From: Squalus acanthias
Lineage: Eukaryota
Reading direction: 5' to 3'
Assembly (NCBI GenBank): GCA_030390025.1
Contig: CM059434.1
Coordinates: 15,128,001-15,192,000, forward strand
DNA: 64,000 nucleotides
How positions within the stretch are numbered: the first letter of the stretch is position 1; every line of letters starts with the position of its first letter. Under the pieces are notes generated by a model, which made no database searches, was not told the origin of the DNA, and saw only the letters and a list, made by a program, of their open reading frames with translations. Below, piece by piece: positions 32,059 through 59,700 of the stretch. A program made the translations under genes and the position numbers.

Positions 32059-32096
32059 TCACCTGACGAAGGAGCAGCCGCTCCGAAAGCTTGTGA
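32059..32096 (+). ncRNA. Minimal type I hammerhead ribozyme motif
   Basis: UCAC-CUGACGA-A-GGAGC-AGCC-GCUCC-GAAA-GCUU^GUGA: intact core, 5 bp stem II, palindromic stem III (AAGCUU) and stem I UCAC/GUGA. Confidence 0.8.
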
Positions 32097-32548
32097 TTTC
32101 AAATAAAACTGTTGGACTATAACCTGGTGTTGTGCGACTTCTCACTTTTGTCCACCCCAGTCCAACTCCGGCATCTCCGCATCATTGTTAATTGAAGGTA
32201 TAACAAACTTAGATGATCAAACACTCCTTAGAATTCAGTTGTTTGTCTGCTGAGACGATTGAAATATCAACTGCCAGAAGCAGCCAGATTGTGTTGAGTA
32301 ATGCAGGTCAAAAGGTTAGAAGTACTGTTCAATTATCTATAAAGGTCAACAACAACAGTTGCAGAACTTTCTCTTAAGCTTGATTAGCATAGTTCGTTGC
32401 TAGCTGAACATAGTTTCCAGTGGGTTTTTGGCTACAATTATAAAGAGTGTGGCTTATAGATGGATTGTACTCAATACTCTAAACAAGGTATGTAACTGAT
32501 TAATTAGTAATACTGTGGAAATGATGCATTACCTATTACTACTATAAA

Positions 32549-32943
32549 CTTTTTTCATTCATTCTTGGGATGTGGATGTCACTGGCAAGGCCAGCATTTA
32601 CTGCCCATCCCTAGAAGCCCTGAGGTGGTGGCGGGCTTTCTTCATAAACCAAAGCAGTTTGATTCCACTTGCTAGGCCACTTCAGAGAGCAATTAAGAAT
32701 CAACCACATTGTTGTGGGGCTAAAGTCACCTATAGGCCAAATCGGGCAAGGACAGCAAATTTCCTTCCCTGAAGGACATTAGTTGAACCAATTGGGTTGT
32801 AGCAATCGGACAGCTTTTAAAAAAAAAACTGAATTCACATTCTCATACTAACATGGTGGGGTTTGAATTCCCAGTCTCTGGATTATTAGTCCAGGCCTCT
32901 GGTTTACTAGTCTGGTAACACTATGCCTCTACACTACTGTACC
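32549..32943 (-). mobile_element. tRNA-derived SINE (tentatively MetaSINE-like) sharing its tail with the LINE at 28975-29592
   Basis: Tail CTAGGGATGGGCAGTAAATGCTGGCCTTGCCAGTGACATCCAC. Same family at ~45050-45390, ~49050-49225 and 62098-62492. Confidence 0.65.
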
Positions 32944-33789
32944 CATTGATGTAAGGAAGTATAGCATGTTCATTATTTTGGATGACAAGTTGTACTGATT
33001 GAAATAAGTGAATCTGATTATAACTATTGTTGCACGTTCATGTGCTATGAAATAAAACAGCTAATGATTTGCATTTAGCCTCGTCTCACCAACTATTTAC
33101 TCGGTCCACCTTCAAAGCAATTGAATCCTATATCTGAAAAGACACGTCTATCCAGTTCCTACCATAACCCAGAGCCCCCCATGGCAATGCTACCGTGCAG
33201 TTAGATATTGGGCAGTATGTGCAGGTTCCAACATGCCAAATGCTTATGGGAGAATATCTAAGGCAAGACTCAAACTCGTAACATGCCTTATGCCATCCTT
33301 ACCCGGTCTGGTGTGCAGCTTTTACAACTGGTACTTTCCTTGCAAGTCAAAATCAATGTCAAATAAGGTAAGTTTACAACTTGATAGAGGAGGGATGAGG
33401 TGTGCTGTGGGATATGCTATTGCCTAGACCCTGGCACCAGAGGGACTGCAATGGTCTTTTCTGGTCCTATGTTCCAATCAATGTTGGTCAAAGGACAAAT
33501 TTGTCCTGGTGGAAATGGTAACACCATCACCACATTGTTCAAAGAGCTCAATGTTTCAGTTGGAATACCCAGTGTCATTGTCATCGGACTCTGACCAGAC
33601 TGTAGGTTAAGCAGGGTTGTGATGATTACAGGGAGATTGTAATCTGGAGGATTCGCTGCACAATAATGACAATTTGCAGTTAGTACTCCTCACGCAACAG
33701 AAACCCCTCAGCCCGTTAAAAAGTGGAATGCCAAATTGGTCAGTGCAGAGTAGTCCCATGCACAGTCATTAATTGAAGCTGAATCTCAC

Positions 33790-34345
33790 ACGCCTGGCTG
33801 GCCTCCCACATTCTACTCTACGTAAACTTGAAGTCATCCAAAACTCGGCTGCTCGTGTCCTAACTCGCACTAAGTCCTGTTCACCCATCACCCCGGTGCT
33901 CGCTGACCTACATTGGCTCCCGGTTAAGCAACGCCACAATTTTAAAATTCGCATCCTGGTTTTCAAATCCCTCCATGGCCTCGTCCCTCCCTATCTCTAA
34001 TCTCTTTCAGCCCCACAACCTCACCCCTCCAACCCCACAAGAGATATCTGCGCTCCTCTAATTCTGCTCTCGAGCATCCCCGATTTTAATCGCTCAACCA
34101 TTGGTGCCCTCATCTTCAGCTGCCTAGGTCCTAAGTGCTGGAATTCACTCCCTAAACCTCTCCACCTCTCTTTCCTCCTTTAAGACGCTCCTGAAACTTA
34201 GATATTTGACCAAGCTTTTGGTCATCTGCCCTAATTTCTCTTTGTGGCTTGATGTCAAATTTTTTTTTGTCATATAATACTTCTGTGAAGCGCCTTGGGA
34301 CGTTTTACAACGTTAAAAGCGCTATATAAATACAAGTTGTTGTTG
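33790..34345 (+). mobile_element. L2 LINE 3' fragment
   Basis: LAGLPHSTLRKLEVIQNSAARVL…ITPVLADLHWLPVKQR and tail GCGCTATATAAATACAAG(TTG)n. Confidence 0.9.
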
Positions 34346-35116
34346 AAATCTGCATTGGGCAGCTTTGTAGTAATAGCTTTTCAGCAAATCTGATAGTCGC
34401 ATCAAACCCTTGTTGATGTTATTATAAGCTTCACACCTCTAGATGTCAGAAGGGTGTCAGTCCCATGAAAGCATTCATTGATGATATTCAGCATAACCTT
34501 TGAAAGGGAGAGCCAGCATTGATTTAGAGGGAGAGGACAAGCTGATCAGAAGCAAATCAATGTGGACTCTGATGGCAGAAGGCTCCATTAGTTGTTGCCC
34601 AAAGCAAGAATGGTGTCAAAAAATTGGCAAGTCTCTTTAAAACAAAAAAAAAAAAATCTACAAAACCTGGACAGTACATGAATATTACTACCAAATATCA
34701 TCATGTTTATTCAGGACCAAACTTTCTTGAATATGACTGCTGCCGACAACAGGAGGGGAGAAAAGCAAGAACATGACCAGAATGAAGTCCTGATCGACAG
34801 CGGAGTGCAGAGGGGTCATTTCAAAATTGAGGATTTAAATCCTTAAAGGGACAATGGCTTCCCCCTGCCGAGATGGTGGATAATCCTATTTGTATGTGGA
34901 GATAGATACGCAGAGAGGGATAGACATTGAGGTTAAACGGGAGGTATAACTGGAGAATGAGAGTCGAGATGTTATCGCATGTATCCCATCGAGAGAGCAG
35001 AGTGAATACAAAGTGATGCATTGAAATCAGTGCTACACAGTAGTTGCGTATGTGTGAGGTGCTCCGATACAGAAAAAGATAAAGGACATCTTAGATTAAA
35101 AACCCTAAAACTGAAC

Positions 35117-35122
35117 TTTATT
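35117..35122 (-). promoter_or_regulatory. Candidate distal polyadenylation signal (AATAAA) for ANO1
   Basis: TTTATT on plus equals AATAAA on minus, with a U/GU-rich tract 25-55 nt downstream on minus, near the end of the TE-poor block. Other AATAAA candidates near 35690, 38074 and 39167. Confidence 0.35.
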
Positions 35123-38100
35123 TTTTTCCAGTATATTTTCATTATTCATATTGTTTTGCCATAATTGTATAAAGGTAAAATTATATGTCAAAATCATTAG
35201 AATACCACTACAGTGGAATCCTGCGATATAGTATTGACCAGGATAAGAAAATAGTTGCTCATAAGCAGACTTCCTCACAACAGAATTGGTTATATCATGA
35301 GTACACTGAATACAAGGAGCAAAATCGGGACATGGTAACAAGTTGAACACAACAAAATATTGCCAAGAATTTGCTTAGATTGGGTTATTGAATGCATATT
35401 TATGCTCCTTTTACAGCATATTACTTCAACATAGTCAAAACTTAGGATCACAGTTGAGATTCAAATGAGTGCACTTAACCTTTTCAGGACGAGAGTAGTT
35501 TTGCAAAAAAAATACATGACTATTTACGGTTTTCAGAATTCTATGAGATGTTATCTAGCTCCCTCCATTTCCACAATTTTAAATGTGCATTTGCACTAAT
35601 TATATAGTAAACACACACACACACGTGTGAACTGGATCCAAAATTTCAGTACACAATGGTTTAGATTTTTGTTCAAAGAATGACCAGATTTATTTTTATC
35701 CCTCCAAAAATCTACCGCGGGCAGTGAGGAAAGGATCTAAATATAATTTTTTGCCAAAGGGTAAAGCTTGTCTAAGCAAAACCAGACAGACATAAATTTC
35801 AATACCGTGTCCCAACTGTTGTCCTTAATATACAGAAACATCTTAAAATAAAACATGTAACTGGCAGCAACTTTTAATCACTTTCAGAAGGATGATCTAG
35901 AAATTAAGAAGGAAGGGCTCTCTGGTCTCAGCTCTTTGTTTTAAGAGCTATAAAACGGTTTGCAAAGCAATATGCTCCAGCAGAATGGAAATCAGACTCT
36001 ACAGCCTACGTCAGAACATTGAAACGGCATCCGAACTTCAATTCTACTGGTTTTTACACGTAGCAAGCAGTGACTGTGATCACAGTACAACAATCCTCTC
36101 CTCCTACAGTACGCAGCAGAACCTGCACAGTTCCCCCTCTCTTGTTTTTAAATAAGATGCTTAGGAATCTTGCTTACAAAAAAGGGAAACAAATCTATTT
36201 AAAACAGTATATTTTAATCGTTTACTTACAAGCAATCCTTCAAACTGTGCACTGTGAAGAGAACTGCTGCTGTGACATCCCTTACTCAATGCATTCTCAA
36301 CTAGGCCACACTGATCACATGACCTCCAGTTGACTTGTCATGTTGCCATGCTACAATCCAAGAATTTTTTTCATGGATAATGTTTAACAAACACAAAATC
36401 TAAACATAATTAAGGGAAATTATTTCAGTTTTTTAAAAAATTGAAATTCTGCTAATTGTTAGATTTTGCTCTTTTGAACACTCAATTCTCTATTCACTTT
36501 GAACTCTTGTCTAATTTCGGGTTGGTTGATGCTTCCTTCACTACTTTATATTATTTCTGATTCCCTCATTTTTTCCCCCCCCTAATAAAATAGTCCTCTG
36601 TTGAGGGAGGCTGCTACCCAATAGAAGAATGGTTTCAGGTGAAAGATATTAGCCAAATTGGCCTCATACAACAGCAAAATTATGCACCATAACTTTATAT
36701 GACACCCATTCTACACATACATCAAAACAGTTTCCACTAACGTTTGTTTTTTTTAAAATATTGCTTCTAAAATACATTAGCTGGCTCATTAAGGGGGGGG
36801 GGGGGGAAGTGAGAAAAGAAAACAATCAAATAACTTGCAATTAGACAAAAAACAAAACAGATAAATGGAGAATGGAGCAGGCTAAAAGAGAGAAACAGAG
36901 CAAATAAAAAAAAGTAAAGCAGCTCGATTTTCTGACGTGTACACCTTCAAGGCACGGTTGGAGTTTTGTTCAGAATGTTGTATTACAAAATGAATGGATC
37001 GTGTGGGATGGTCAGGCTGAAAGTGGGTAGCAGGGAGGTTGCACGAACACTGTACCCAACAGTGGGCAGTACATGGTGATGCCATGCCCAGCATTCAGGT
37101 CGGGCAATGCCCAAGCGGGTGGTCCTGGACAGCAAAGGCTATTTGGCGGTGTAGGGACTGTGACGGAAAAAGAGCTCTCGGCCTATTCTGTATGGCTTCC
37201 AACTAAGCTCAAAATGGAGGCTGTTGTCTCTCGACTTCCACTTTTAAACTCAATAGTCAGTCTGCTAGTATAAGGGGAATGTCTTATGTTTGGAAAGCAA
37301 TGAAGAAATGACGACTTTGCTGGGACTATTTGTTTGAAATGAATGCATTGCAGACAAATAACCCCAATCAATGACCGACGGAGACTTCATTTATAATCTG
37401 TGAGCAGGTTTGAAGCACAACCTCTGGGAAAGGTACAAAGGAAGCCACAAGTTCGAGCCATTCCCACTTTTGTCCAGCTTGGTGTAAAATCTGCCTTTAC
37501 AAACCCTATCCATGCAGACAATTTTCCGAAAGAGAGACTGCTTCTGCATCAAAGGAGAAGATATCCTGATAATCCAAAGACCCTCTCAGGGAAGCCTTCT
37601 AAATTCACCTATTCTCTTTTGTGGAGGGAAAAAAAAATAGGAACACCACACCGTTTCCCAAGAATATGCTGAAAGGAGCTGTAAGAATTATGGAAGCGGT
37701 CTTTGTTTTTTTTTTTGAACAGTCAATCCAATTTGTGCAAGTTTGATTTTTTTGCTGACTTGCATCTTGCCTTTCCTTCTGATAATTTTATCTGTATTAA
37801 TTTTAAATCTGGGTAAGTAGTTTTTAAGCCTGTATGAAGTGATCTAGTAGAGCATTACTTGTACGCCCTCTGAGGTTATGGGAGAATGCTTTCTCCAGTG
37901 AGCCATTTACCATGTGTCAGGGTTAATTCGATAGACCTGGCCTATTCTAACATACTCAGCAGAAATAATTTTGGTTCATAAAAGTGACTCAAGTCTGCTT
38001 ATCAAAACTACAGACTCTGAACATGGGAAAGATGCTGGGAAAAGCCAAAAGTGGGCATTCATTTAAAAGAAGATTTATTAATTTCAAGACATTGTTTATC

Positions 38101-38888
38101 CGGAAGGAAATGTAGGTGTTAAATGTTATAATCTACCTATTTAACTTTACTAGTGGCTGGCATGTGGGGAACTCACAAGGTGGCTGCATCGCCAGAATTT
38201 GCATTGGTAAAATGTGATTGGTCATTCAACCAAATCAGAAGTTACACTATAGAGGTGGATCACAAACACAATCAGAAAACTTCTGCGTGAGACTCTGGAC
38301 AGAAAAGCTGTACAAACATGGAAAGAAAATATTAAATATATTACGAGCCAAAAATACATAAAAGTTGTGCAAAAATAAAATCTTTGGGCTACACACGACA
38401 CCACTGTGGATCAGTACTCAGAATGCATTCAATGAAGGCAATCCCATACAGCTGAGGTACAGTGTTACAGGTGGCAATCCTCTACATAGTGAAATTCACC
38501 CCAGTTAAGATGGACAATGATCTGCTTTCAAATCATATTTTCTTCGGTGATAATCCAATCACAACGACGAGAGAAAAGAACAAGAGTTAAACACGCTAAA
38601 GTGCTCTTTACGTAAAAGTTTCTAATTTCCAAAATCGAAACATAAAATGTGTGTAGATTTCGAACACGGACATTAAAGTAGCTTTTATGAAACCTGAAAG
38701 TACACTTTTCTAATTTGGTGCCTACAGCAGTAAATCTGCACCTTACCTTCCCGCTCCTCCCCCCCCACCCCCGCGCCCCCCATTGTAACAGCTCTGACAA
38801 TGGCACCATCTTAATTCAACAGTTATCATGAGATCAGTTTAAGAAAAAAAATTGCAACTATAATCTAAGTTTCATTAGTGATCTGTAG

Positions 38889-38972
38889 GAGAGAGAGAGA
38901 GAGAGAGAGAAAGGAGAAAAAAAAGACAGAAAATTAGAAAAAGAGAAACAGGAGAGAGAAAAAGAGAGACAG
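38889..38972. repeat. (GA)n microsatellite and purine-rich tract
   Basis: Read directly. Similar tracts at ~49598-49622, 53333-53358 and 55246-55278. Confidence 0.9.
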
Positions 38973-40343
38973 ACAGTAAAATAAGATGCATTAAAGCGAT
39001 AGTCTTTAAGAATTTAGTCTCCTGTATCAGAACAGTAGCAAGCAGAAAGTCTACTGGATGCAACTCAGTCTCAATTTGAAATGGGATCCTAAAACGTGTC
39101 CCCACTATTATTTTTTTTTTTAGAAACAATTCTTAGAATTTGGGACTCCACCAGGAATTAATCCCCTTTATTCGGCCAATCATATCGTTGAATGCTAATA
39201 ACCTATCTACTCACAAGTTAGTAAATGGTTTATGCTTAAATCCGGGTCCTGCTGGCATTTTATAAAAGTTAAGGTGCATGATTTGAAGCAACTACACACT
39301 TAAAATCTCCTACTAAAGCCCCTTTGGGCAAACCATCGGAGGGCAGGTTTCATTATCACAAAAAGGAAATTGGGTTTGTAAAACATCCCGGCATTGGCGA
39401 GCCCGGTCATCGAGCTAGCCGACTCCGGCATAAAACTAGCTAGGGTGGGGCCGCTTCTAAAAGCTCATTTCAGCAGTGCTCTGGATTAAGTCAAAAAGGA
39501 CAGTATTTCTATGGAAGGTAGTCCAGGATTTTCCACTGATTACATAAATGCTCAAACTACCAGTAGGATAATGTGTATAGAATAGCGAAGCTGATATGCG
39601 AATGCCATGCTGCTTTTGGATTATTAGCTCAATCCGCTACTACAGCAATAAGTTACAAATTCCTGATTACTATTTCTTTGCCCACATTTGCTTCCCTCTG
39701 AACCACATTATCCAAAACGGACATCCCTTTCAAAATGCAAGCAGTGCGTTCTTAACCGATGGGAACCTTGCTTCGAAGAAGTTGCCATTTTGTTTGTTCG
39801 AATTACAGAACATTTTAAACTGGGGGGGGGGGGGGGGGAAATCTGCCTTTACCCAAATGGCTAAGAAACAAAAGAGGAGTCTCAGATGACTACTAATTAA
39901 ACCATAAATATATATAGTAAAAAAAACAGTACATTTTAATTTTGGCAAAAAAAATTCGCTCAAAAGGAAACTGTTGCCACCATTGCTATGAATTCTTTTC
40001 CAAGCTAAAGGCTAAGTTTTGCTTGTACTGTTGTTATTTAGGGAATGGAAAATATCTGAAATAACATTCCTGTGGAATACAAAAGTGACACTCCCTGCAT
40101 TGCACTGTGTAAAAATATAAATTTTTTTTTTTATACAGTCAAATCATGGTCCGCCTCATCTGTAAAGAAAGTGGTTCTTGCATCAACATTTTCAAAATGG
40201 CAACATGAACAGCAAACTCAAGCCGTCCACCAAAGGTGCTGTTAATACAGATCAAGTTTGTGCTGCTCCTTTTAAGTGACACCTTGCCATATTGTGGAAT
40301 GCCCCAACTAAAGAAACTTAGGTTTACTTTAAAGCATCAGTCT

Positions 40344-40634
40344 CTAAACAGCTTCCTTTCCTGCGTTTATAAGATGGGAGTGGGAAGTGTCTCTGCCGCG
40401 CATGCGGTTTTCGGAGAGCTCTGGCGTATATTCCTTGGGGCTCTCGTCAAAGTTTTCCGCGGTCCTCTCTTTCTCTTGGGAAGAAAGTACATCCACTATA
40501 TGGAGTTTGGTCTGCTCTTCTTTCAGGAAAAGATCCACCATTAATAATTTTTCTTTAGACATGCGCTCACTGATTTCCTTTGGAATGTCTGGTATCATCC
40601 AGTCCACAAAGTCACTCATAAACATAACTAGGTT
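40344..40634 (-). CDS. ANO1: Anoctamin-1 (TMEM16A), last coding exon
   Basis: Acceptor ttacAG|AAC. Encodes NLVMFMSDFVDWMIPDIPKEIS…KEKLLMVDLFLKEEQ…KEAV*; NLVMFMSDFVDW matches ANO1 rather than ANO2. 291 nt, phase 0. Confidence 0.93.
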   Translation of the reverse strand, partial: NLVMFMSDFVDWMIPDIPKEISERMSKEKLLMVDLFLKEEQTKLHIVDVLSSQEKERTAENFDESPKEYTPELSENRMRGRDTSHSHLINAGKEAV

Positions 40635-41029
40635 CTGTAAAGACACAGGAGAGGGGCGGTTAGTAAAACTGTGCCGACGTCAAGTTCAGGAATATTGCAC
40701 GGCTCAAGGCTATCTAAAAGATGTGAGGAAATAAGTTTAAACAAAAACAAAGTGCTCTCCTTTAATTTCAGCTCAGACAAATCTGCTGACATCAAGTGCT
40801 TTGGAACTTCTCAACGCTGAAGTGCTTTGTGCCTGCCTCAAAAAAGGTTATTTATAAAAATTGTACCACTGAAATTAAACTCGTAAAACTCCCGTAGCAT
40901 TGCTGAGGGTAATTGAAGAGGCTATTGGGTGTTAAATAAAAAGAGGGCGAACGGGAGGGGCAGGGGAAAGTTAAAGAATGAAGTGGGAATTAAAGAAAGC
41001 GAATAAAGAGGCATATTGAGAGTTAAACA

Positions 41030-41638
41030 GTGGGAGAGAGAGTGGTGAGAATGTGGAAAGCGCTACCACATGGAGTAGTTGAGGTGAATAGTGTAGATGC
41101 ATTTAAGGGGAAGCTAGATAAACACATAGGGAGAAAGGGATAGAAGGATATGCTGATAGAGAGTTAGATGAGGAAGGGTGGGAGGAGGCACGAGTGGAAC
41201 ATAAACGCTGGCATGAACTGGTTGGGCCGAATGGCCTGTTTCTGTGCTGTAAATTCTATCTACATGCAAAATTCTTAGAAGGCTTGACAGGGTAGATGTT
41301 GAGAGGCTGTTTCCCCTGGCTGGAGAGTCTAGAACTAGGGATCCTAGACTCAGGATAATGGGTAGGCCATTTAGGACTGAGATGAGGAGAAGTTTCTTCA
41401 CTCAGAGGGTGGTGAATCTTTGGAATTCTCTACCCCAGAGGGCTATGGATGCTCAGTCGTTGAGTATATTTAAGACAGAGATCGATAGATTTTTGGGCAC
41501 TAAGGGAATCAATGGATATGGGGATAGGACAGGAAAGTGGAGTTGAGGTACAAGTTCAGCCATGATCTTATTGAATGGAGGAGCAGGCTTGAGGGGCCAT
41601 ATAGCCTCCTCCTGCTCCTATTTCTTATATTCTTGTGA
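41030..41638 (+). mobile_element. Two adjacent CR1 3' fragments in the last ANO1 intron
   Basis: GRPFRTEMRRSFFTQRVVNLWNSLP…GKWS, with CR1 tails ending near 41260 and 41635. Confidence 0.85.
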
Positions 41639-42489
41639 TAGGGATTAAAAGAGAACCAGAATAGGGAATTTTGATAAAAAGAATTGGTTGGGAATTGGGG
41701 GTTAAAAACAGGGGTGACATTAAAAGGTAAAGAGGAACTACAGTGGGTGAGAAAAGACTGGGTGGGTAAGGATGGGTGGGTAAGGATGAGTGGGGCAGGA
41801 ATGGGTTTGGGGCTGGTGCACAAGGGCAAAGAGGAGGTAAAAATAAATTAAGAGGGAGAGATTGACTTGGGAATGACGCATTAAAAAAAAATTCAAAGTG
41901 GGTCTGGAAAATTTGATAGCAATGGGGATATGGGCTGAGAGAAGAGCTTGGAGATTTGAGCGTGTGGCTGGGTCATCAGGCTGGAAGCAACCTCTGAACA
42001 GCATGGGCTCCCATAGTTCAAGAGTACTGATGTGACAGGGTGGTGAGTGGGGCTGGTGTGAAGGTCCCAGTTGGCGATAAAATAGAGGGGGAAGAAAGTT
42101 TTAGAAATTTAGAATAAAGGAAAGGTGGTCACCGTCAGCAATCCAAAACTAATCCCACTCTCTCCCTGTAGCCCTGTATCTTCCTCTGCTTCAAATATTT
42201 ATACTATCTACAGTGCTGCAACCACTCCCCATGGCCAAGCACTCTATACACCAACAACCCCCTGCTTAAAGACATTTCTCCTCATCCCTTTCCTCATTCT
42301 CCTGATGAGGATTTTAAATTGATTATTTAAATCGCCATTGATTCTCCAACCAGGGTAAAATAATGTTTCCCTATTCACTCTTCTCAAAACCCTTCATAAT
42401 TTAAAAAAACCTCTTCAAATTTCTTCTTGGCCTTCTCTGCTCCAGTGGGAATTGTCCATGTATCTCAAGTCGCTCCTCACAGCTACATA

Positions 42490-43243
42490 AGGTATTTTCT
42501 AAATGGTGAAAAGCTAAAAACAGTGGACGTCCAAAGAGACTTGGGGGGTCCAGGTACATAGATCATTAAAATGTCATGAACAGGTACAGAAAAGAATCAA
42601 AAAGGCTAATGAAATGCTGGCCTTTATATCTACAGGACTAGAGTACAAGGGGGCAGAAGTTATGCTGCAGCTGTACAAAACCCTGGTTAGACCACACCTG
42701 GAGTACTGCGAGCAGTTCTGGGCACCACACCTTAGGAAGGATATATTAGCCTTGGAGGGAGTGCAGCATAGGTTTACCAGAATGATACCCGGACTCCCAA
42801 GGTTTAAGTTACGAGGGGTGATTACACAAAGTAGGGTTGTATTCCTTAGAACTTAGAAGGTTAAGGGGTGATCTGATCGAAGTTTTCAGGATATTAAGGG
42901 GAACAGATAGGGTAGATAGAGAGAAACTATTTCCGCTGGTTGGGGATTCTAGGACTAGGGGGCATAGTCTAAAGATTAGAGCCAGACCTTTCAGGAGTGA
43001 AATTAGGAAACACTTCTACACACAAAAGGTGGTAGAAGTTTGGAACACTCTTCCGCAAATGAAATTGATGTTAGATCAGTTGTCAATTTTTAAATCGGAG
43101 ATTGATAGCCTTCTGTTAACCAAAGGTATTAAGGGATATGGGCCAAAAGCGGGTATATGGAGTTAGATCGCAGATCAGCCATGATCTCATCGAATGGCGG
43201 AACAGGCTCGAGGGGCTGAATGGCCGACTCCTGTTCCTATGTT
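42490..43243 (+). mobile_element. CR1 3' fragment nested in an older antisense CR1 (~42140-42485, ~43245-43610)
   Basis: MLAFISTGLEYK…RPHLEYCEQFWAP…GYGPKAGIWS plus tail. Both flanks are degraded minus-strand CR1. Confidence 0.85.
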
Positions 43244-47869: not shown

Positions 47870-49047
47870 GTCTGCAGCCTATGGTAGACCACACCATCCT
47901 TCCCCAACGCCTCTCCATCATCCAGCTTGGTAGGACTGCACTCACCTGGTTCCATTCTTATCTGTCCAGTCATAGCCAGAGAATCACCTGCAATGTCTTC
48001 TCTTCTCGCTCCCACACTCTTACCTCTGGTGTCCCCCAAGGATCTATCCTTGGCCCCCTCCTATTTCTCATCTACATGCTGCTACTCATCCAAAAACACA
48101 CGTCAGGTTCCACATGTACACTGACGACTCTCAATTCTACCTCTCTCGACCCCTCCACGGTCTCTAAATTGTCAAACTGCTTGTCTGACATCCAGTTCTG
48201 GATGAACAGAAATTTCCTCCATCTAAATATTGGGAAGACCGAAGCCATTGTCTTCAGTCCCCATCACAAACTCCGTTCCCTGGCCACCGACTCCATCCCT
48301 CTCTCTGGCAACTCTGAGGCTGAACCAGACTGTTCGCAACCTTGGTGTCATATTTGACCTCGAGATGAGCTTCCGACCACATATCCACTCCATCACCAAG
48401 ACCGCCTACTTCCACCTCCGTAACATCGCCCGACTCCACCCCACCTCATCTGCTGCTGAAACCCTCATCCATGCCTTTGTTACCTGTAGACATGACTATT
48501 TCAACGCACTCTTCACTGGCCTCCCATCTTCCATCCTCCATAAACTTAGTCATCCAAAATTCTGCTGCCTGCATCTCAACTTAAACTAGGTCCCATTCAA
48601 CCATTACCCGTGCTCGCTGACCTACATTGGCTCCTGGTTAAGCAACGCTTCGATTTTAAAATTCTCAGCCATGTTTTCAAATCCCTCTATGGCCTCGTCC
48701 CTCCCCATCTCTAACCCCTCCTCCAGCCCTACAATTCTCCGAGATATCTGCGCTTCTCCAATTCTGGCCTTTTGCGCATCCCCGAATTTAATCGCTCCAT
48801 CATTGGCGGCCGTGCCTTCAGCTGCCGAGGCCCTATCCTCTGGAATTCCCTCCCTAAACCTCTCCGCCTCTATCTCTCTCTCCTCCTTTAAGACGCTCCT
48901 TAAAACCTACCTCTTTGACCAAGCTTTTGGTTATTTTTCCCAAATATCTGTGTTACTCGGTGTCAAATTTTGTTTGATAACGCTTCCGTGATGCGTCTTG
49001 GACGTTTTACTACGTTAAAGGCACTATATAAATGCAAGTTGTTGTTG
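47870..49047 (+). mobile_element. L2 LINE, 5'-truncated and degenerate
   Basis: VDHTIL…GVPQGSILGPLLFLIYM…LNIGKTEAIVF…AYFHLRNIARL and a (TTG)n tail. Confidence 0.9.
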
Positions 49048-50407
49048 AATACTAGTGAACCAGTTGGGTTTTTATGACATTATTCTGGCAGCTTTCATGG
49101 TAAATTTCTGGTGCAAGCCACAAATGATTGGATTTACAGAATTTAGTTTCATAACTTTCCATGGTGGGATTTGAAGTCATGGACTCTGGGATGCTAGCCC
49201 AGTACCATAACCACTAGGGTACCAAAACTTACAGTCTGCTATGAAAACTAACTGGTTTAAAAGTGGAATGTCAGCCTTCATGAACAGGCGAATACCGCAC
49301 TGTGTCTCTTTGGTTGATTCCTTAATGAAATGGAATCATCTCTATTTCAAAGTGATGCATGCCCTAATCAATGCCAGCTGTAAAGTTAAAACTCATTCTG
49401 ATCAGAAGCTGACACTAATGACTGCAAAAAAAAAAGCAAAAATTGAAGTTTGGGCATCTTAACTTTTATAAATGCTTTGTAAAAAAGAGAATCCAACTGA
49501 ACACGAGCTTTTCTTGGTGTCCATAATGAACTGCTGCCGACGATGGGGATAAAAAGAATGGAAATAATCTTCTGAAATAAGGTTGTGGGGAGTGAAGAGA
49601 GAGAGAGAGAGAGAGAGAGAGCGTGAGAGAGCCTACACAACCAAAAAGGGGTTAAATTCTTAAAAGCACCGTGTTATCTATGAGTTGATGGTGAATTATT
49701 CAATTGCAAATGGGAGGTTGAATAAGTGAGGAGACATGTTATTTTCGTTCTTGGTGCAATTATTAACTGGACACCAAACAAATGTGGCTTGGTGCAGAAT
49801 TGTAACAAAAGCAAAACTTTGGAAGTTAGAACTATTTCAACAAAGACTTAAAGTTCCTTTGTCTATTTTAATATGAACAGATTAATGCATTTAATACAGC
49901 ATGATTTCAACCAAGTTTTGAAAAGGTGTAATTATGGTATTAAGTAAACACATCCATAATTGTAAATATTAGTAGTAAGAGGAAGGGTGGGGCCAATCAT
50001 TACCAGCCTAGAAGGCAAGCAGGTGGTCTGTTTCAAGTCTTCTGCCAAATACTAATATTAATGACTGGGACTTGGGTGTACAGGGCACAATTTCAAAATT
50101 TGCAGATGACACAAAATTTGGAAGTATAGTGAACAGTGAGGAGGATAGTGATAGACTTCAAGAGGACAGAGACAGGCTGGTGGAATGGGCGGACACGTGG
50201 CAGATGAAATTTAACGCAGAAAAGTGCGAAGTGATGTATTTTGGTAGGAAGAACGAGGAGAGGCAATATAAGCTAAAGGGTACAATCCTAAAGGGGGTGC
50301 ATGAACAAAGGAGATCTGGGGGTATATGTGCACAAATCGTTGAAGGTGGCAGAGCAGGTTGAGAAAGCGGTTAAAAAAAACTTACGGGATACTGGGCTTC
50401 ATAAGTA

Positions 50408-50653
50408 GACAAAAATGAGAAGTCGCACAACACCAGGTTATAGTCCAACAGATTTATTTAAAATTACAAGCTTTCGGAGCTATCGATTGCCCCTTCTTCA
50501 GGTAAAGTTACATTGTAACTTTACCTGAAGAAGGGGCGATCGATAGCTCCGAAAGCTTGTAATTTTAAATAAATCTGTTGGACTATAACCTGGTGTTGTG
50601 CGACTTCTCATTTTTGTCCACCCCAGTCCAACGCCGGCATCTCCACATCATGA
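50408..50653 (+). mobile_element. Penelope family B short fold-back (105 bp arms) with 3' extension
   Basis: 50408-50512 and 50514-50618 are inverted with one mismatch. The extension CACCCCAGTCCAACGCCGGCATCTCCACATCA matches that of the 31 kb element. Confidence 0.92.
50521..50562 (+). ncRNA. Minimal hammerhead ribozyme motif (mirror copy on minus at 50464-50505)
   Basis: UUAC-CUGAAGA-A-GGGGC-GAUCGAUA-GCUCC-GAAA-GCUU^GUAA. Stem I covaries with the 32059 copy. Confidence 0.78.
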
Positions 50654-53331
50654 GATAAGGCATAGAGTATAAAAGCAAGGAAGTTATGATGAACCTTTAT
50701 AAAACACTGGTTCGGCCTCAACTGGAGTATTATGTCCAATTCTTTAGGAAGGATGTGAAGGCCTTAGAGAGGGTGCAGAAAAGATTTACAAGAATGATTC
50801 CAAGGATGAGGGACTTCAGTTACGTGGATAGACTGGAAAAGCTGGGGTTGTTCTCCTTAGAGCAGAGAAGATGGAGAGGAGATTTGATAGAGGTGTTCAA
50901 AATCATGAGGGGTCTAGACAGAGTAGATAGCGAGAAACTGTTCCCATTGGCAGAAGGGTCGAGAACCAGAGGACACAGATTTAAGGTGATTGGCAGAAGA
51001 ACCAAAGGCGACATGAGGAAAAACGTTTTTACGCAGCGAGTGGTTAGGATCTGGAATGCACTGCCTGAAAGGGTGGTGGAGGCAGACTCAATCACGGCTT
51101 TCAAAAGGGAGCTGGATAAGTACCTGAAGGAAAAAAAATTGCAGGGCTACAGGGCAAGGGCAGGGGAGTGGGACTAGCTGAAGTGCTCTTGCAGAGAGCC
51201 GGCACGGGCTCGACGGGCCAAATGGCCTCCTTCCGTGCTGTAACCATTCTATGATTGCAAGAGTTTGTCTCAGGGTACCTGAATTCACCTTGTACAAGCT
51301 GTTGTCCCTGTATTTCTGGTTAAATGAGTGGACGACACATCATATAATCAGTGTAAAAGGTTTAACAAGTAACCTAATCCCTCTAAATTAGAACCACTTT
51401 TAAAGCATTTAGTTCATGGACAATAGGTAGTTTTAATTCATTAGCTTGGTGATTCTCTAACTGGTGAATTAAAGCATTTTGCTACAGTGATCACATGCAC
51501 TGAAGCTGAACACCAGCTTCAGATTTTTGTATAAATTTCAATATTTGCAGACGGTTACACTGTTTGGGATTTCATTAGAGAGGTGGAATGTTAGTAGTAC
51601 TTAAATGCTATATGGGTTGCTATTACCCTGAGCAATATTGGTCAGGAAGGTGCTAATACTTTTATATTAAGTTCACTTGCCCACTATTTCAATGATGGCT
51701 CATTAAAATTGACAGAAAAAAAATGAATATTAATATGGCATTGTAGGATTTCAACCCAATGTTATAAAAACATGTAATTATGGTACAGGTTATTATGCAT
51801 TAAGTAAATATCCATAATTTTAATTATCAAGGTCTGTGCGTCAGGGTAACTGAGATCTTTCTATTCACTTCAACTTGTGCAAGTTCTGTGCCCAGATTTC
51901 TGGTTAAATGAGTGGACAGCATATCAGATAACCAGTGTAAAAAGTTTAACAAGTAACCTATTGCCTCTACATAAAAGTATTTAAACCTCGATCTTTGGCT
52001 GGAACTACTTCAATGCTGAATCACACGGAGCAACATCTGCTGCATGTGCTTACGGCAGAGATATCTTAAGTATCATGTTAAACAGGAGACCTAAAAATGG
52101 TTGACATGTTTAAATTAGCCAGATGATTTATCGCACCAAAAAGAAAAGTACTTGAACTCCCCTGAGCTAACATGATTAAATATTCTTCATCAGGTTTCTG
52201 TGGTTTTTATTGATTCAGACTAACTCACTTAACATCCAGCAAGAACTATTTTGAGTCTGTGCAATGCAAGTGCCCTTGCGATGTCATAGATTCCATTTGA
52301 CTAGATGATGGAGATGCATGGAAAGTGAATCAGTCATGATATTTTATTCATTTACCAGGGGGGTTAGGAGAAGCAAAGAGTTTTGCCATGCACCATGCAT
52401 AACAAAATCAAAAAGCCATTTGTAAGAAGGGATTTACGGCTTTGTCATGCATGAGAGAGGGGGAAATTCTCCCTCCACTTCCCCTTGAGAATTTCCTGAT
52501 GAATTTGGATCAAGAATCAGCTGAAGCAAAGAAAGCAAAAGGCGGGAGTGTGTGGAGCCGATCTGGCATAAAAGGGAGGTAATTCATTAGTGGGGTGCTA
52601 CAGGAATTAGTACTGGGGCCATTGTGGTTTACAATGTGCATATATACTTGGAAATGGGAACAGAAGCAAAACTCTCCAGGTTTGCAGATACCACCAAACT
52701 GGGGGGGGATTGCACGCAGCGGTGAACAGGCTGATCACCCACAGAAGGACCTGGATATAATGGGGACCTGGACGGATGAGTGGCAAATGTCATTTAATGC
52801 GGACAAAGGCCAAATCATGAGATTGGGAATGAAAGAACGAACTTGCATTTATATAGCACCTTTCACACCCTCAAGACATCCTTTACAGCCAATGAAGTCC
52901 TTTTTGAACTGCAGTCACTGTTGTAATGTAGGAAACACAGCAGCCAATCTGCACACAGCAAGCTCCCACAAACAGCAATGTGATAATGATCAGACAATTT
53001 TTTTTTTTTAAAGTGACATTGATTGAGGGATAAAGATTGGCTAATAACAGCCCTATTGTTGTAAAACAGCACATCCTCAGAGCCAATCTGATACCTGTCT
53101 ATATCTATAGGTACACAGCCTTTAGATTTCAGTTTTCAAAACAAATGCCCAGATACCTCTTGCAAGTTTTCACTCAAGAATTGGACAGCATTACCAGTCT
53201 GTGCTCTTTCATGATCTTGACACTCTTTCAGCCGCACGTAGGAGGTAGCCAGTTGTGGTCTGTAGTGTTTACCTTCAGCTCTTCTCCAGTAAACCATCAA
53301 AATAAATAAAACTAGGAGTTTTTATTTGCTC

Positions 53332-53362
<31 letters not shown>

Positions 53363-53559
53363 CACCACCACCATTCATAATATTACACAGTTAAAATGCA
53401 TAGACTTTCAAGGTATAACCAGATCAAAGGAGGTAAAATGTAACCAAACCTATGGACCACAAACTTAAATGTTTACATCCAATCTTAAAAAAAATACCAC
53501 CACAGGAGAGATTAGACAAAAAAAAAAAATCAAGCCAGTGGATTTTTGCTTGGGCCATG

Positions 53560-54156
53560 TGAAGAAAGCCTTGCATTTCTATAGCGCCTTTCATGACCTC
53601 AGGAAGTCCCAAAGCGCTTTACAGCCAATGAAGTACTTTTGAAGTGTAGTCACTGTTGTAATGTCGGAAACATTGCAACAGCAATGAGAATGACCAAATA
53701 ATCTGTTGAGGGGTAAATATAGGTCAGGACACTGGGAAGAACCTCCTCGCTCTTCTACAAAATAGTGCCACGGGAACCTTTATATCCACTTGAGGGGGTA
53801 GACGCAGCCTCGGTTTAATGTCTCACCCGTAAGACGGCATCTCCGACAGTGCAGCGCACTCTCCGTACGGCACCTCCGACAGTGCAGCGCACTCTCAGTA
53901 CGGCACCTCCGACAGTGCAGCGCACTCTCAGTACGGCACCTCCGACAATGCAGTGCACTCTCAGTATGGTACCTCCGACAGTGTAGCGCACTCTCAGTAT
54001 GGTACCTCCGACAGTGTAGCGCACTCTCAGTACGGCACCTCAGACAGTGCAGCGCATGCTCAGTATGGCACCTCCGACAGTGCAGCGCTCCCTCAGTACT
54101 GCACGGAGGCGTCAGCCTAGGGGAGTGGGACTTGAACCCACAACCCTCTGACTCAA
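53560..54156 (-). mobile_element. DeuSINE (SacSINE1-like) with internal tandem amplification
   Basis: Colinear with the copies at 23385-23882 and 58995-59472 except for the repeat array. Confidence 0.8.
53834..54097. repeat. Minisatellite, 8 x 33 bp
   Basis: Unit ACGGCACCTCCGACAGTGCAGCGCACTCTCAGT, head to tail, with no spacers. Confidence 0.95.
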
Positions 54157-57100
54157 AAGGCCGACACCATTTTTGTTGCCACAAGTAGAAAATATATTTA
54201 GTGAATAATTTAGATTCCAGTGTAATTAGCTGCAGGCATTACCCATCCAGAAACAGCTAGATCATTGCTGATTTGAAACTGATGTCTTTAATTCAGCTGC
54301 AGAGCCTCGCTGCGTCCGTAACTCATACTTGATATTGTGACTGGATTCACGTATCCTTTCACAACCGGAGTTACAGACACTCCTATTTAACAGTTGGGTT
54401 GTGTGTGTCAGTTTACCGTAGAAGCAACGAATCATCTGACATTTGAGCAAAGGGGCAGATCATCTTTCATGCTCGTTTCAATGACAGGGGAGGCCAGATC
54501 CTCATCATTTCTTCGCGGCAGCCGCGTGCAACATCAGTGAGAATTTCAGTCACATGTCCAATCATCAGAACATAGGAATTGCGAGACCAAAAAAACACCC
54601 ACCACGGTCCACCTAGTTCATCTTCTATCATCCGGGTAGTCGCACGATACAAGGATAATGGAGCTGCTGACTAATCGTAGCAATCAATCTCGATCAATTA
54701 CTCTACAGCAGATCTGGACATGAGGCGCGGAAAACCCATCCCAGTGGTGGAGTGCTTTGGGAACTATAGGTCCAAAGTCACTTGTTTCCGCCCAAGCGGG
54801 CTACATTCATCACATGTCATGTCATGTCTCAAATTACTCACAGTATCCCAAAATATTATTTTCTGAAAGAAATCTATCTACTTTAATTCCAAGAGTGTTA
54901 GTGATGCCCTCAATTTTGAGGAAGAATTCCCTTTTGTTCAGAAAACGCACATACACCAAGTGACAGAACTCAAAACATCCGAGTGCTGAAAATACACAAA
55001 TTAATCAGCAATAGAAAGACGACAACAGGTTAACTTGGGCCTTCGATATTAATGAAGAGGACCCAACCCAAAATTGGAACCCACCTTCTTCTCCAGATGC
55101 TGAGCGGCCGGGTGTGCATCTCTCGGCTTTTATTTCAAACACTACATACAGGAGCAGACAACACAATGGTGGGTGCCTGGTCCTCGTATAGCCAAGAATG
55201 GAGGCCTAAGGTCATCAATGCACCCAGCACTTGCCAATGTGGGCAGAGAGAGCGAGAGAGAGAGAGAGAGAGAGAGAGTTGGGAGCTGGTATCCATTAGT
55301 TGAAGGTACCCGCTCCAACTGCTGTGTATTAAACGATCCCCGACTTGGACGTAAATTGGGCCAGGCACCCCATAATGCAGCTGGATTTCCCCCGAGCAGT
55401 GCTCCAGCTACACAGGGCCCACTGGCGACAGGCACTGAAGGGGCGGCCACCATTTAAAAAAAAAATCCAATACTGCCTTCTAGCGCGCAATACCCAGTCA
55501 CCGCTGGACATTACGAGCGATGCACTTGGAACGCCGGATAATTTTGCAAAATGCACTGGTCTCCTGAGGTTGTTTCATTTGTGCTCAAGCACAGAGCCAG
55601 CCTGGTGTCACGGAGTGTGGGACATATTATCTGCCCCACTCTCTTACACAGGCTTATTTTTAGTTCTCCCACCTGTAACATGGAGAGGTGTGGGCTTATC
55701 CGTGCCGAAATATTCCCCTTACTTTTGTGCGAATCCAGCCTCCATTACAGTGCTGGTGCATTTCAAAGACTGCCTTCCTACCTCAAAATCAAGAGTTCTT
55801 TTCCCCCGGTTTGATCTTGGTCTATATCTGGTACCCATCACCGCATCTCCCCACGTCACCTCTCACGACCAGCATCGCGAGACCCTGGCCTGTAAAGTAG
55901 GCTTCAATTGATTTATCTCCTGGGCTTGTTTTCGCTTGCCTAAGAAGAATTTCGCAGATATTGTTTCTCCCCCCACATTGGCCTGGGTTTTTAATCTGGT
56001 TTTTTTTTGCCTCTCCCGGATAATCACATGGTTTTCCGGTGGGATGGGGAGTGTACTTATTGTGATGCTCAAGGTATCACAATTTTGTAGGGCAGGCTGG
56101 GTGGACCAGAGGGTCTCTTTTCCTGTCCATCATTTTTCATATGTTTCGTCTCCCAACGGCTTCTCAGTCTAACTAGTTACTCGTACAAGTGAACCCCTGT
56201 GTTTAAAGGTGGACGATCGTGTGTGCACCCAGCATCTGCTACATCTGAGCTTGCGGCTCAATGTCAGTGAGGATTGCCCGATGCACGTCGCAAGGTGAGC
56301 CACCTCACTCACCACGGCTCGGTTTACTGTGCGCAAGATTGGCTGCCGCGTTTCCCACACTGCAACAGTGACTCCACTTCAAAAGTACTTCATTGGCTTT
56401 AAAGCGCTTGGAGACGTCCGGTGGTCGTGAAAGGCGCTATAGAAATGCAAGTCTGTCTTTATAATGTGCGCACTCTGCCATGTCACATGCACCCTACTGA
56501 GCTCCGTGGGAGTGGAGGTCTTTGAGGTAGGCGCTGTGCTAAAGCTCTGATGTCGTACGAATGTGTTGTTAACGGTGATTGTGCAACATCTTTCTTTCAG
56601 CCTCAAATAATCAGCAGCGCCAAATCGTTTCTCCTCAAAAAGGTGTCGATTTAATGGTTGATTGAAATAACCTAGAGCTGAGCTACGCCATCTAATTTCC
56701 TATCCTTTCTTTGCTCAGCCCTCTGAAATCTAGGTGTGGTACAAACTTATTCAGCTTCTTAGGTGTAAAGCGGAGTGAGAGTTCTGCATGATCAGTCAAA
56801 CGCCATTGCTCTATTCAGCACAAAATTCACTGGGTTGTTTGCCAGTTCAAAAGTTGGAGGGCGACACCTGTTAAGAGTCATAACGGCACAGAAGGAGGCC
56901 ATTCGGCCCATGCCGGCTCTCTGTAGCGCAATCCAGTCAGTCCCATTTCCCCGCTCTATCCCCGTAGCCCTGCAAGTTTATTTCCCTCAAGTGCCTATCC
57001 AGTTTCCCCTTGAAAACATCGAGTGTCTCCGCTTCCACCACTTCCGTCGGCAGCAAGTTCCAGGTCATCACCACTCGCTGTGTAAAAAAGTTTTTCCTCA

Positions 57101-57481
57101 CATCCCCCGTGTATCTCTTGCCCAAAACCTTAAATCTGTGTCCCCTAGTCCTTGTACCATCAACTAGTGGGAACAGACTTTCCCCGTCTAGCCTATCCAA
57201 ACCAGTCATAATCTTGTACACCTCTATCAAGTCACCCCTCAACCTCCTTTGCTCTGATGAAAACAAATCCAGCTTCACCAACCTGTCCTTGTAGCTAAGA
57301 TCCCCCATCCCCGGAACCATTCTGGTCAATGTCCTCTGCACCCTCTCAAGGGCCTTCACATCCTTCCTAAAGTGTGGTGACCAGAACTGGATGCAATATT
57401 CCAGTTGTGGCTTAACCAGCGCTTTATATAAAGGTTCAGCATAACTTCTCTACTTTTGTACTCAATACCTCTATTTATGAA

Positions 57482-57608
57482 TGATGCGGAGATGCCGGTG
57501 TTGGACTGGGGTGGACAAAAGTGAGAAGTCGCACAACACCAGGTTATAGTCCAACAGCTTTATTTGAAATCACAAGCTTTCGGAGCGCTGCTCCTTCGTC
57601 AGGTGAAG
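57482..57608 (-). mobile_element. Penelope family B solo terminus (127 bp)
   Basis: Matches 32056-32184 in reverse. 14 bp TSD CCTCTATTTATGAA (57468-57481 / 57609-57622). Confidence 0.92.
57570..57606 (-). ncRNA. Minimal hammerhead ribozyme motif, sense to ANO1
   Basis: UCAC-CUGACGA-A-GGAGC-AGC-GCUCC-GAAA-GCUU^GUGA on the minus strand. Confidence 0.78.
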
Positions 57609-58994
57609 CCTCTATTTATGAAGCCCAAGATCCCATATGCTTTGCTAACCACTCTCTCAATATGTCCTGCCACCTTCAGGGACCTATACACATTAACTCC
57701 CTCTGTCCCTGCACACTCTTTAAAACTGTGCCATTAAGTGTATATTGCCTCTCCCTGTTCCTTCTGCCAAAATGCATCACCTCACACTTCTCTGTATTAA
57801 ATGCCATCTGCCACTTGTCTGCCCATTCTGCTAGCCTATCTATGTCCTGTTGCAGTCAATTGGAATCATCCTCACTGTTTGCCATACCCTCAAGTTTGGT
57901 GTCATTGGCAAATTTAGAAATTCTACTCTGTATTCCAATATCCAGGTCATTTATATACATCAAACAAAGCAGTGGCCCCAGCACTGACCCTTGGGGAATA
58001 CCACTGTCTAGCATCCTCCAGTCTGAAAAACAGCCATTTACCACAACTCGCTGTTTACTATCCTTAAGCCAATTCCTTATCCAAGCTGCCACTGACCCAC
58101 CTATTCCATGAGCCTCAATTTTATTAACCAGCCTTCTATGTGGTACTTTGTCAAACGCCTTCCTAAAATCCATGTAGACAACATCCATTGCATTCCCTTC
58201 ATCAATCCTCCCTGTTAAAGTTCTTTAAAAATGAACATTTCATGCAACTCATTATGCTTCTAGAATTCTAGACTTTGCATACTGAAGGCAAACAAAAAAT
58301 GGACAGACAGTGCTCTGAAAGCTAGTTTGAATAAGTCTATTATGACAGCAGGCTAATGCTCGGAGCATTAGTTCCATCCATCTTCTGCCTCTCGCTCATG
58401 GAATCTTAATGTAACTGAACATTACATTATTCTGCCAATATTTTTCAAGTTAATGGAAACAACATACCGAGCTTAATATTTTACCGGAGCATTTTTTTAA
58501 TGTAGTTGGGAGGGGGCGGTGCTAAAGAGACATTTTTGTGCGGTTAAATTATCAATGGCTTCAAGTAACAAACCCAGCTCTCATTCCATGGGTTTGTCAT
58601 AAAAATCTCACCCATTTAAACTGACTATTTAACACTTGACACATTTAAGTGTCATGATTAGTATTATATATTGAACAAGTTGTATATTTCTGATGTAATT
58701 TGAAACATGTTTTTTTATATCCTATTGTAGCCCTTTCTAATTTTGCTGGCCCATTATTATTATTATTATTATTTTTTTTTTTTGCAGTGCTTTTATTTTC
58801 TTTATAAATTGTTGCAATTATTTAACAAATTTTGAATCCTTCTTCCCTGCTGCGTACCAAGACCCAAATGATTAGACGCACATCCAGAGCAGGTTAAAAG
58901 GATCCTGAAAGAAATGCGACAGCACTTAAAAAGGAACTTGAATTAAAAAACCTTGCCTGGACTTGACTTTGGATCATTCACGATGTCAGTAAAA

Positions 58995-59472
58995 GGAAAA
59001 AAAATAAAGGATTTGTATTTCTATAGCGCCTTTCATGACCTCAAGATGTCCCAAAGTGCTTTACAGCCAATGAAGTACTTTTTGAAGTGTGGTCACTGTT
59101 GTAATGTAGGAAACGCGGCAGCCAATGTGCGCACAGCAAGTTCCCACAAACAGCAATGTGATAATGATCAGATAATCTGTTTTAGTGATGTTGAGCGAGG
59201 GATAAATATTGGACAGGGACTCCAGGGAGATCTCCCCAGATCTTCAAAATAGTGGGCATGGGATCTTTCACGTCCACCTGAGGGGGGGGGCGCAGACGGG
59301 GCCTCGGTTTAACGTCTCATCCAAAAGACGGCACCTCCGACAGTGCAGCACTCCCTCAGCACTGCACTGGGAGTATCAGCTTAGATTTTTGTGCTCAAGT
59401 CTCTGGGAGTGGGACTTGAACCCACGACCTTCTGACTCGAGGCTAAAGTGTTACCCACCGAGCCACGGCTGA
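58995..59472 (-). mobile_element. DeuSINE (SacSINE1-like), near full length
   Basis: Head AGCCGTGGCTCGGTGGGTAAC…GGTTCAAGTCC (A/B boxes), Deu-like core and L2-type tail. Confidence 0.8.
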
Positions 59473-59598
59473 AACTCAGTAGTATAACATAGTACAATAT
59501 CTATTAGTTTGTTGAATACTCTGAAAACTGAATGTCTATTCCCTTGCTATTTGTGGGGTTTCTATCTCCTTTCCGATATCAACCTTGCTGAATAGGAA

Positions 59599-59700
59599 AT
59601 AACAACAGAAAACGCTGGAAAAACTCAGCAGGCCAGGCAGCATCCGTGGAGAGAGAAAGAGAGTTGACGTTTCAGGTCGATGACCTTTCATCAGAACAGG
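59599..59700 (-). mobile_element. Penelope family A solo terminus
   Basis: Reverse match to 5690-5785. 10 bp TSD TGAATAGGAA (59589-59598 / 59701-59710). Confidence 0.85.
59663..59697 (-). ncRNA. Minimal hammerhead ribozyme motif (family A), sense to ANO1
   Basis: GUU-CUGAUGA-A-AGGUC-AUC-GACCU-GAAA-CGUC^AAC: canonical core and GUC cleavage triplet, but stem I is only 3 bp. Confidence 0.7.

Follow-up and report, generated by a model that had tools for sequence, protein, structure and literature searches.

What kind of sequence repeatedly leaves copies of a small ribozyme in a vertebrate genome, and does the ribozyme still matter there? The question is raised by a 64,000-nt stretch of Squalus acanthias DNA (contig CM059434.1, positions 15,128,001 to 15,192,000; hereafter the window, with coordinates counted from its first letter), over which six hammerhead-like motifs are scattered. 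They are very probably minimal hammerheads of type I belonging to two families, A and B, of Neptune-type Penelope-like elements (PLEs), now present as dead, 5'-truncated insertions. The window is repeat-rich cartilaginous-fish DNA with many fragments of long interspersed nuclear elements (LINEs), presumably of the CR1 type.

A minimal type I hammerhead descriptor run over both strands of the whole window returned exactly six matches, all of them named in the initial annotation, compared to a mean of 0.015 and a maximum of 1 in 200 block-wise dinucleotide shuffles. Family B comprises subfamilies B1 and B2, with family A separate. B1 motifs lie at 31106-31143(-) (core residue C3 at 31139, predicted cut after 31110, triplet CUU), 32059-32096(+) (C3 at 32063, predicted cut after 32092) and 57570-57606(-) (C3 at 57602). 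B2 motifs lie at 50464-50505(-) and 50521-50562(+), with C3 at 50501 and 50525, and the single family A motif at 59663-59697(-), with C3 at 59694. The core CUGANGA, GAAA and UH occurs in type I order in 6/6, as does an extra A between positions 9 and 10.1, directly after CUGANGA. Stem II pairs over 5 bp and loop II spans 3-8 nt. These features had been read correctly in the initial annotation, as had the decayed copy at 5686-5725 (CUGACAA), which fails the core at G8, changed to A, and forms part of a decayed family A hammerhead and 3' end without tail at 5686-5790(+). Stem III is replaced by AGCU in family B and ACGU in family A, with no helix III loop, and 15.2-16.2 is palindromic (GC and CG, respectively). 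The earlier description of stem III as a palindrome, AAGCUU or ACGU, holds for these inner letters; family A reads AACGUC, not a full 6-nt palindrome. A G10.1-C11.1 pair marks five of the six motifs, those of family B, which mostly have triplet CUU; family A is the exception with triplet GUC, A-U at 10.1-11.1 and a stem I of 3 bp. Minimal hammerhead ribozymes are described in PMC4209133 as type I, with a short helix I, no helix III loop, an extra nucleotide after position 9 and a palindromic 15.2-16.2, the G10.1-C11.1 pair being highly conserved rather than invariant. The motifs are real minimal hammerheads of a known type, in a class described in 2014.

The elements that carry these motifs are identified by the coding remnants upstream. 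Ahead of the B1 motif, 31606-31725(+) holds the end of a PLE frame encoding reverse transcriptase (RT) and GIY-YIG endonuclease, namely its final 39 codons with the stop, 92% identical to residues 605-643 of P0003. The left arm of the same insertion holds the same end of the open reading frame (ORF) at 31603-31478(-), and the two ORF ends (39-42 codons) are 92-93% identical to the P0003 C-terminus. P0003 is a 643-residue Heptranchias protein in which an RT is recognised (Pfam E 5e-9) along with a DKG motif and, at residue 505, a CX4CxxC linker; in the relative P0006, GIY-YIG scores above the cut-off. RT followed by a C-terminal GIY-YIG in one frame is found in these two relatives, the window holding the ends alone. 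A protein search with the family B ORF end passed 18 of 20 candidates, all named sources being sharks. In family A, a decayed GIY-YIG frame precedes the motif at 5076-5426(+) (38% identity to P0003; Pfam E 0.002, below the cut-off), with a linker cysteine remnant near 4745. The hammerhead lies downstream of a PLE frame directly in B1 and A, and in B2 by homology of motif and tail. As an ORF end or GIY-YIG frame stands upstream of the motifs, both families are PLE 3' repeats, which bears out the PLE identity proposed in the initial annotation. A CX2-5CxxC linker before the endonuclease is given in PMC8557442 as the mark of Neptune or Nematis types, and through the linker motif of their relative the window families would belong to a Neptune-type clade.

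Two further observations concern these frames. Annotated isoforms of shark XRCC5 (P0002), FAM204A (P0016) and FAM210B (P0017) match the family B ORF end with 83-95% identity, through either exonisation of element pieces or mistaken gene models. The decayed family A frame contains, at 4844-5119, a pair of 26-bp inverted repeats (88%) with a spacing of about 275 bp, which suggests that a small DNA transposon inserted there.

Considered as insertions, the six motifs represent four: two head-to-head inverted pairs and two solo ends. The initial annotation had counted motif copies singly, but the five family B motifs belong to three insertions, 31106/32059 and 50464/50521 being arms of inverted pairs, and a family A pair, a scrap at 7516 and the target-site duplications had been missed. 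The window thereby holds seven PLE events: B1 pair, B2 pair, B1 solo, A solo, A pair, a long decayed A copy and an A-like scrap. The B1 pair (31055/31058-32185, both strands) has arms 97.8% identical over 544 nt. Its left arm (31058-31604, (-)) contains ORF end, 3' untranslated region and hammerhead and ends at an internal site without tail, and its right arm (31605-32185, (+)) ends in a tail of 38-41 nt (32145/32148-32185). The left 13-bp duplication (31045-31057), whose last 3 letters fit the element too as a microhomology, is matched 13/13 at 32185-32197. The B2 pair sits in a CR1 copy at 50410-50651, its arms (50405/50410-50512(-) and 50514-50651(+)) meeting at a centre at 50513, with a tail on the right arm only. 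The B1 solo, 127 bp with full tail, lies in another CR1 copy at 57482-57608(-) between 14-bp duplications (57468-57481 and 57609-57622). The A solo, 102 bp at 59599-59700(-), ends at an internal site with no tail and has a 10-bp duplication (59589-59598 and 59701-59710). The family A pair occupies a CR1 3' end at 26155-26360 (arms 26155-26242(-) and 26243-26360(+), with a 40-nt tail on the right) and has a 14-bp duplication matching at 12/14 (26141-26154 and 26361-26374). The long decayed A copy, about 4700-5790(+), ends at an internal site. The 40-nt family A-like scrap at 7516-7553 begins at most 3 nt from the predicted cut site and could be a copy of cleaved RNA or a chance truncation.

Target-site duplications of 13, 14, 10 and 14 (12/14) bp are present in four of five insertions tested, and a terminal 35-41 nt tail is confined to one arm in all three inverted pairs. 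The B1 solo ends at the tail end and the A solo and long A copy at the internal site, and both 3' end types occur in both families. This layout of duplications, one-sided tails and inverted arms matches published PLE insertions. A GIY-YIG endonuclease would cut both strands 10-14 nt apart, and reverse transcription would begin at the tail end or at the internal site 30-41 nt upstream and would often stop early. The ribozyme would be carried along because it lies 85-125 nt from the reverse-transcription start sites. In three of the seven events the other nick would have received a second, inverted copy, either because the complementary DNA (cDNA) folded back or because a second RNA was primed there.

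Several points weigh against this identification or against an active ribozyme. The Neptune-type assignment is drawn from a relative's linker motif, not from a tree, and the B2 pair has no clean duplication. Family A has A-U, not G-C, at 10.1-11.1, and CUU, the triplet of most family B motifs, is a weak cleavage triplet. The cleavage of A and B motifs is predicted from sequence. No Rfam hammerhead family was among the 6 matches in the window at E up to 1. Stems I and II are in the minimum-energy structure of all three family B monomers folded; family A stems can pair over 3+5 bp, yet the minimum-energy fold pairs core bases, and folding z-scores are modest (-1.0 to -2.1, with -0.2 for the decayed copy). 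A hand-built double hammerhead reaches -6.7 to -21.7 kcal/mol against a cofold minimum of -23.7 to -30.7 kcal/mol, so energy alone gives an active dimer no advantage. Dimer cleavage was reportedly the subject of a 2017 study by Lunse et al.

If the motifs are hammerheads, is their fold under selection? The initial annotation had proposed this for the source elements, citing a compensatory change in stem I from UCAC/GUGA to UUAC/GUAA. The five family B rows represent three insertions of two subfamilies and 9 base pairs, and all 45 of 45 cells in the stems are paired. One pair of the nine changed on both sides (stem I, C-G to U-A) and one on a single side (stem II, A-U to G-U), and with three independent insertions the covariation score was equalled by 50/500 shuffles. 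The covariation is real, yet it is one evolutionary step between two subfamilies, falls short of significance on these rows and had been overstated in the initial annotation.

A wider sample came from contigs of four public runs from two organisms, aligned on 31605-32300. Three runs are guessed to be DNA and one (X11) RNA; the variants are contig-level and unphased. The family is abundant in 4/4 runs (19902, 15226, 2092 and 1677 records), with summed depth in the millions compared to 10-20 on the flank, a summed figure and not a copy number. Among the 40 of 63 substitution rows shown, a loop II substitution at 32079 makes up 59% of depth in X1, a U to C change of H17 at 32092 makes up 20%, and a stem I change at 32095 makes up 14%, its partner change not being among these rows. 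One deletion row falls in loop II. None of the four variant rows shown in the motif (3 substitutions, 1 deletion) touches the core or stem II, which favours selection on the fold. However, the 89-nt tail has three variable places, as few as the motif, so this conservation is not special to the ribozyme and the proposal stands in part.

The equal conservation of the tail invites the view that the hammerhead does not cleave in these families and serves as a structural signal or one for protein binding, or persists as a vestige, held by conservation of the whole 3' end. Other systems give this some footing. PMC11167929 describes PAc, the Poseidon element of Anolis carolinensis, as inserting in vitro with inactive ribozyme mutants, and reports no RNA ends at the cut site; Naiad PLEs are described in PMC8557442 as thriving without the motif. 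Within the window, the 26 kb pair entered its site with no complete motif, and two intact copies (C3 at 57602 and 59694) are tolerated on the sense strand of what is presumably an ANO1 intron. Against it, both unrelated families and both subfamilies retain every catalytic core letter, and the H17 variant shown, U to C, is an allowed letter. In addition, the PAc motif does cleave, if only with protein (PMC11167929), and Schistosoma mansoni hammerheads, whose monomers do not cleave, cleave weakly as dimers (PMC4209133), dimer cleavage being treated as the accepted model in PMC6765202 and PMC6155905. A hammerhead that does not cleave in these families is judged quite improbable. Ribozyme cleavage probably takes place in the source elements, where by analogy with the published systems it would be slow and would depend either on dimers formed at the palindromic helix III or on help from an element protein.

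The window copies themselves are most likely idle passengers, because the solo copies lack a partner and the inverted pairs fold into long hairpins (218/247 nt paired in B2, 162/206 in A and 1076/1128 in B1). With arms on opposite strands, one transcript of a pair holds one sense motif and no dimer partner.

The host gene is recognisable from the last three coding exons of ANO1 at 45898-45704, 44508-44386 and 40646-40368, all (-), with 75-91% identity to shark ANO1. The hammerhead-bearing insertions lie around the 3' end of this gene. No further ANO1 exon was found from those three up to 64000, and the insertions at 50.4, 57.5 and 59.6 kb, upstream of the last exons, presumably lie within a long intron. 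The 247-nt B2 hairpin in this intron could be an editing or small-RNA substrate. Rfam microRNA matches at 50.4-50.6 kb were dismissed as a product of the palindrome, far under the cut-off.

The second proposal of the initial annotation was that truncated copies stop just upstream of the motif, making ribozyme plus tail a possible minimal mobilised unit. Measured from C3, the B1 solo and the A solo both have their 5' end at -6, the B2 centre lies at -11/-12 and the B1 pair begins at -458/-465. The long A copy starts more than 600 nt upstream, the scrap starts near the cut site, and both arms of the A pair begin inside the ribozyme, one from G8 and the other from loop II. The proposal is borne out in part: three of the seven insertions agree with it, starting 6-12 nt upstream of C3, and four start elsewhere. 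One pair has no whole ribozyme, and intact motifs are preferentially picked by readers. When events with a whole motif are considered, 3/5 start at most 12 nt upstream (p 0.014, post hoc, for a uniform 100-nt window).

A stronger form of the proposal is a non-autonomous PLE unit similar to a short interspersed nuclear element (SINE) or a retrozyme, with an RNA starting 6-7 nt upstream of the core, from a start site or a splice junction, that is copied in trans. Two solo insertions of different families both at -6, with the B2 centre close by, fit this, as do single contigs with joints or alignment ends at 32056-32057, where depth steps up; in X1 the summed depth is about 0.4-2 million upstream and climbs to 3.3-6.8 million across the motif and the tail. 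However, B1 and B2 cease to resemble each other at this same place, and their divergence point alone yields a depth step and joints. A further point in favour is an acceptor-like sequence directly before family A stem I (CTAAC resembling a branch point, pyrimidines and CAG at 5670-5690), at the position where an intron of Drosophila virilis Penelope ends, the 5' end of helix I (PMC4209133). This is offset by the four insertions that start elsewhere and by the normality of very short PLE insertions, with a median of 128 bp in Chlamydomonas (PMC9977147). The window also lacks a retrozyme-like tandem array, having no two same-family, same-strand motifs less than 7 kb apart. Taken together, a unit of this kind is unlikely. 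As type I hammerheads cut at their own 3' side, self-cleavage leaves a 5' end after H17 rather than upstream of stem I, and cannot set the upstream boundary. That boundary could come from the start of the RNA, from a splice junction or from stalling at the structure.

The inverted pairs raise the further question of how many templates each needed. The B2 centre can be read as a cDNA fold-back over a 3-nt loop or as a join at 2-nt microhomology. Between the B1 arms there are 8 substitutions and 2 indels: two of the substitutions are private to the right arm, the family being 99-100% like the left, two fall where the left letter makes up 68% and 40% of depth, and four are absent from the rows shown. 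Polymorphic sites account for 2/8 arm substitutions (p 0.03-0.21). At one site in the A pair, one arm agrees with the 59.7 kb copy and the other with the 5.7 kb copy. As two of the differences between the B1 arms involve letters that both seem common in the family, and each A arm shares one letter with a different other copy, it is possible that inverted pairs arise from two RNAs primed at two nicks, perhaps joined through the palindromic helix III.

Family B occupies target sites at 31044-31057, 50397-50409 and 57609-57623. The B2 pair and B1 solo entered the same CR1 position (within 4 nt) in the same orientation in two CR1 copies, and the left flanks of the 50 kb and 57 kb insertions agree at 12/13. 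This position is spanned by seven of the window's CR1 copies, two occupied and five empty. A single duplicated locus was rejected as the origin of the shared site, as the two hosts are 74% identical (261/354, 386/525) and carry different subfamilies. A CR1 break at 10359-10778 was also rejected as a third hit, lying about 20 nt away and holding a CR1 3' end and a SINE-like piece. The 31 kb target is not CR1, but matches the 57 kb target at 13/18 in register, a score reached at 9 of 127,964 background positions, 3 of 32,384 AT-rich positions and 15 of 32,384 when a 2-nt slip is allowed. Family A targets match at 8/18 and 5/18 only.

From the sequences of these sites it is likely that family B has some real target preference. 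The alternative, that the three insertions share a target by chance and through a liking for AT-rich DNA in a CR1-crowded genome, is rather doubtful. It draws on the comparison being post hoc and limited to three events, on the unclean right junction of the B2 pair and on reports that PLEs favour AT-rich sites (PMC11167929, PMC3846280). The contigs also lend it support: agreement among loose ends behind the tail is only 0.36-0.44 (141, 116 and 18 contigs) and the targets vary, in a listing with 800 further rows outside those shown and in which junctions continuing with T would be placed elsewhere. Such heterogeneity speaks against strict site-specificity. The AT-rich null, with 3 of 32,384 positions (15 with the slip), is hard to reconcile with chance, as are the non-CR1 site at 31 kb, the divergent CR1 hosts with their different subfamilies and the poor family A matches. 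On 3/3 sites, the family B endonuclease probably prefers a degenerate AT-rich target of ~15 bp that one CR1 position happens to spell. A more specific version is an even bet, namely that the family B GIY-YIG reads a degenerate ~15 bp target (roughly CTTnnTAAnTnnAGG) and cuts 13-14 nt apart, with the CR1 position a genome-wide landing pad. The loose-end consensus is a weak hint of this motif, fitting at 12/17 in X1 with a 5-nt offset chosen by eye (~0.03 after 14 offsets) and at 10/17 in X5 (0.5), X1 and X5 being from one organism and the matches counted by hand. A literature search, mostly of records without full texts, returned no report of a family B-like sequence-guided PLE endonuclease, and look-ups for a Penelope preference for CR1 gave no match.

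The window has other features. Fairly well-kept long LINE frames lie at 18497-21627 and 16399-17766, which presumably encode an ORF1-like protein of esterase-like look, an endonuclease and an RT. An array of a 33-bp unit at 53770-54164 is expanded within a dispersed repeat also present at 23740 and 59321. Pattern scans for family copies gave 0 and 0 in viral contigs and 0 in prokaryote genomes; two metagenome pattern matches were discarded as unrelated coding-looking DNA with neither motif nor tail.

The ribozymes are shark examples of a class known since 2014, and their interest lies in what surrounds them. With very many young copies, sharply defined duplications, 3' ends of two types and inverted pairs, questions of PLE integration could be answered by counting, such as fold-back versus two templates and a possible accumulation of 5' ends at the ribozyme. 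If the preference for a long degenerate target is true, family B would have a rare sequence-guided PLE endonuclease and present a case of one retroelement landing on another.

The closest known system is the minimal hammerhead of metazoan PLE pseudo-long terminal repeats (pLTRs) described in PMC4209133. It shares the architecture, mostly occurs as single dispersed copies with several families per genome, and includes motif pairs 100-700 bp apart on opposite strands, as here. A lamprey motif in its supplement shares its stem I with B1; a search of two supplement files for shark terms gave no match. The window motifs differ from that description in the family A A-U at 10.1-11.1 and in a stem II of 5 bp. 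Neptune elements with an endonuclease, as presented in PMC8557442 and PMC3846280, have the C-terminal GIY-YIG and 5' truncation seen here and the CX2-5CxxC linker seen in the close relative, and the same sources give a PLE layout in which an inverted truncated copy lies adjacent and one end carries a tail of 30-40 bp. Duplications of 8-10 bp are reported there for rotifer PLEs compared to 10-14 bp here, and the Neptune bias they describe is for microsatellites, whereas the family B target is non-repetitive and degenerate.

PAc provides the biochemical counterpart (PMC11167929). Two reverse-transcription starts mapped in vitro define its tail and match the two 3' end types of the window, both strands are cut and extended, its targets are AT-rich, and its hammerhead near the 3' end needs protein and is not needed for insertion in vitro. 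PAc belongs to another clade, however, with a cut preference of only three letters, ATT, and inverted pairs are not among the products reconstituted in the available portions of that study. Non-LTR retrozymes (bioRxiv 10.64898/2026.07.22.740005) carry type I hammerheads related to those of PLE pLTRs and are reported in the one chondrichthyan sampled, but are described as tandem repeats with one hammerhead per unit, an array not seen in the window. For target choice, the nearest parallel is the spike-moss PLE-X of PMC8557442, which inserts at one position of a multicopy sequence much as family B does at CR1. PLE-X is endonuclease-less and strict for 28S ribosomal DNA, whereas family B carries an endonuclease, its target is degenerate and its sites extend beyond CR1.

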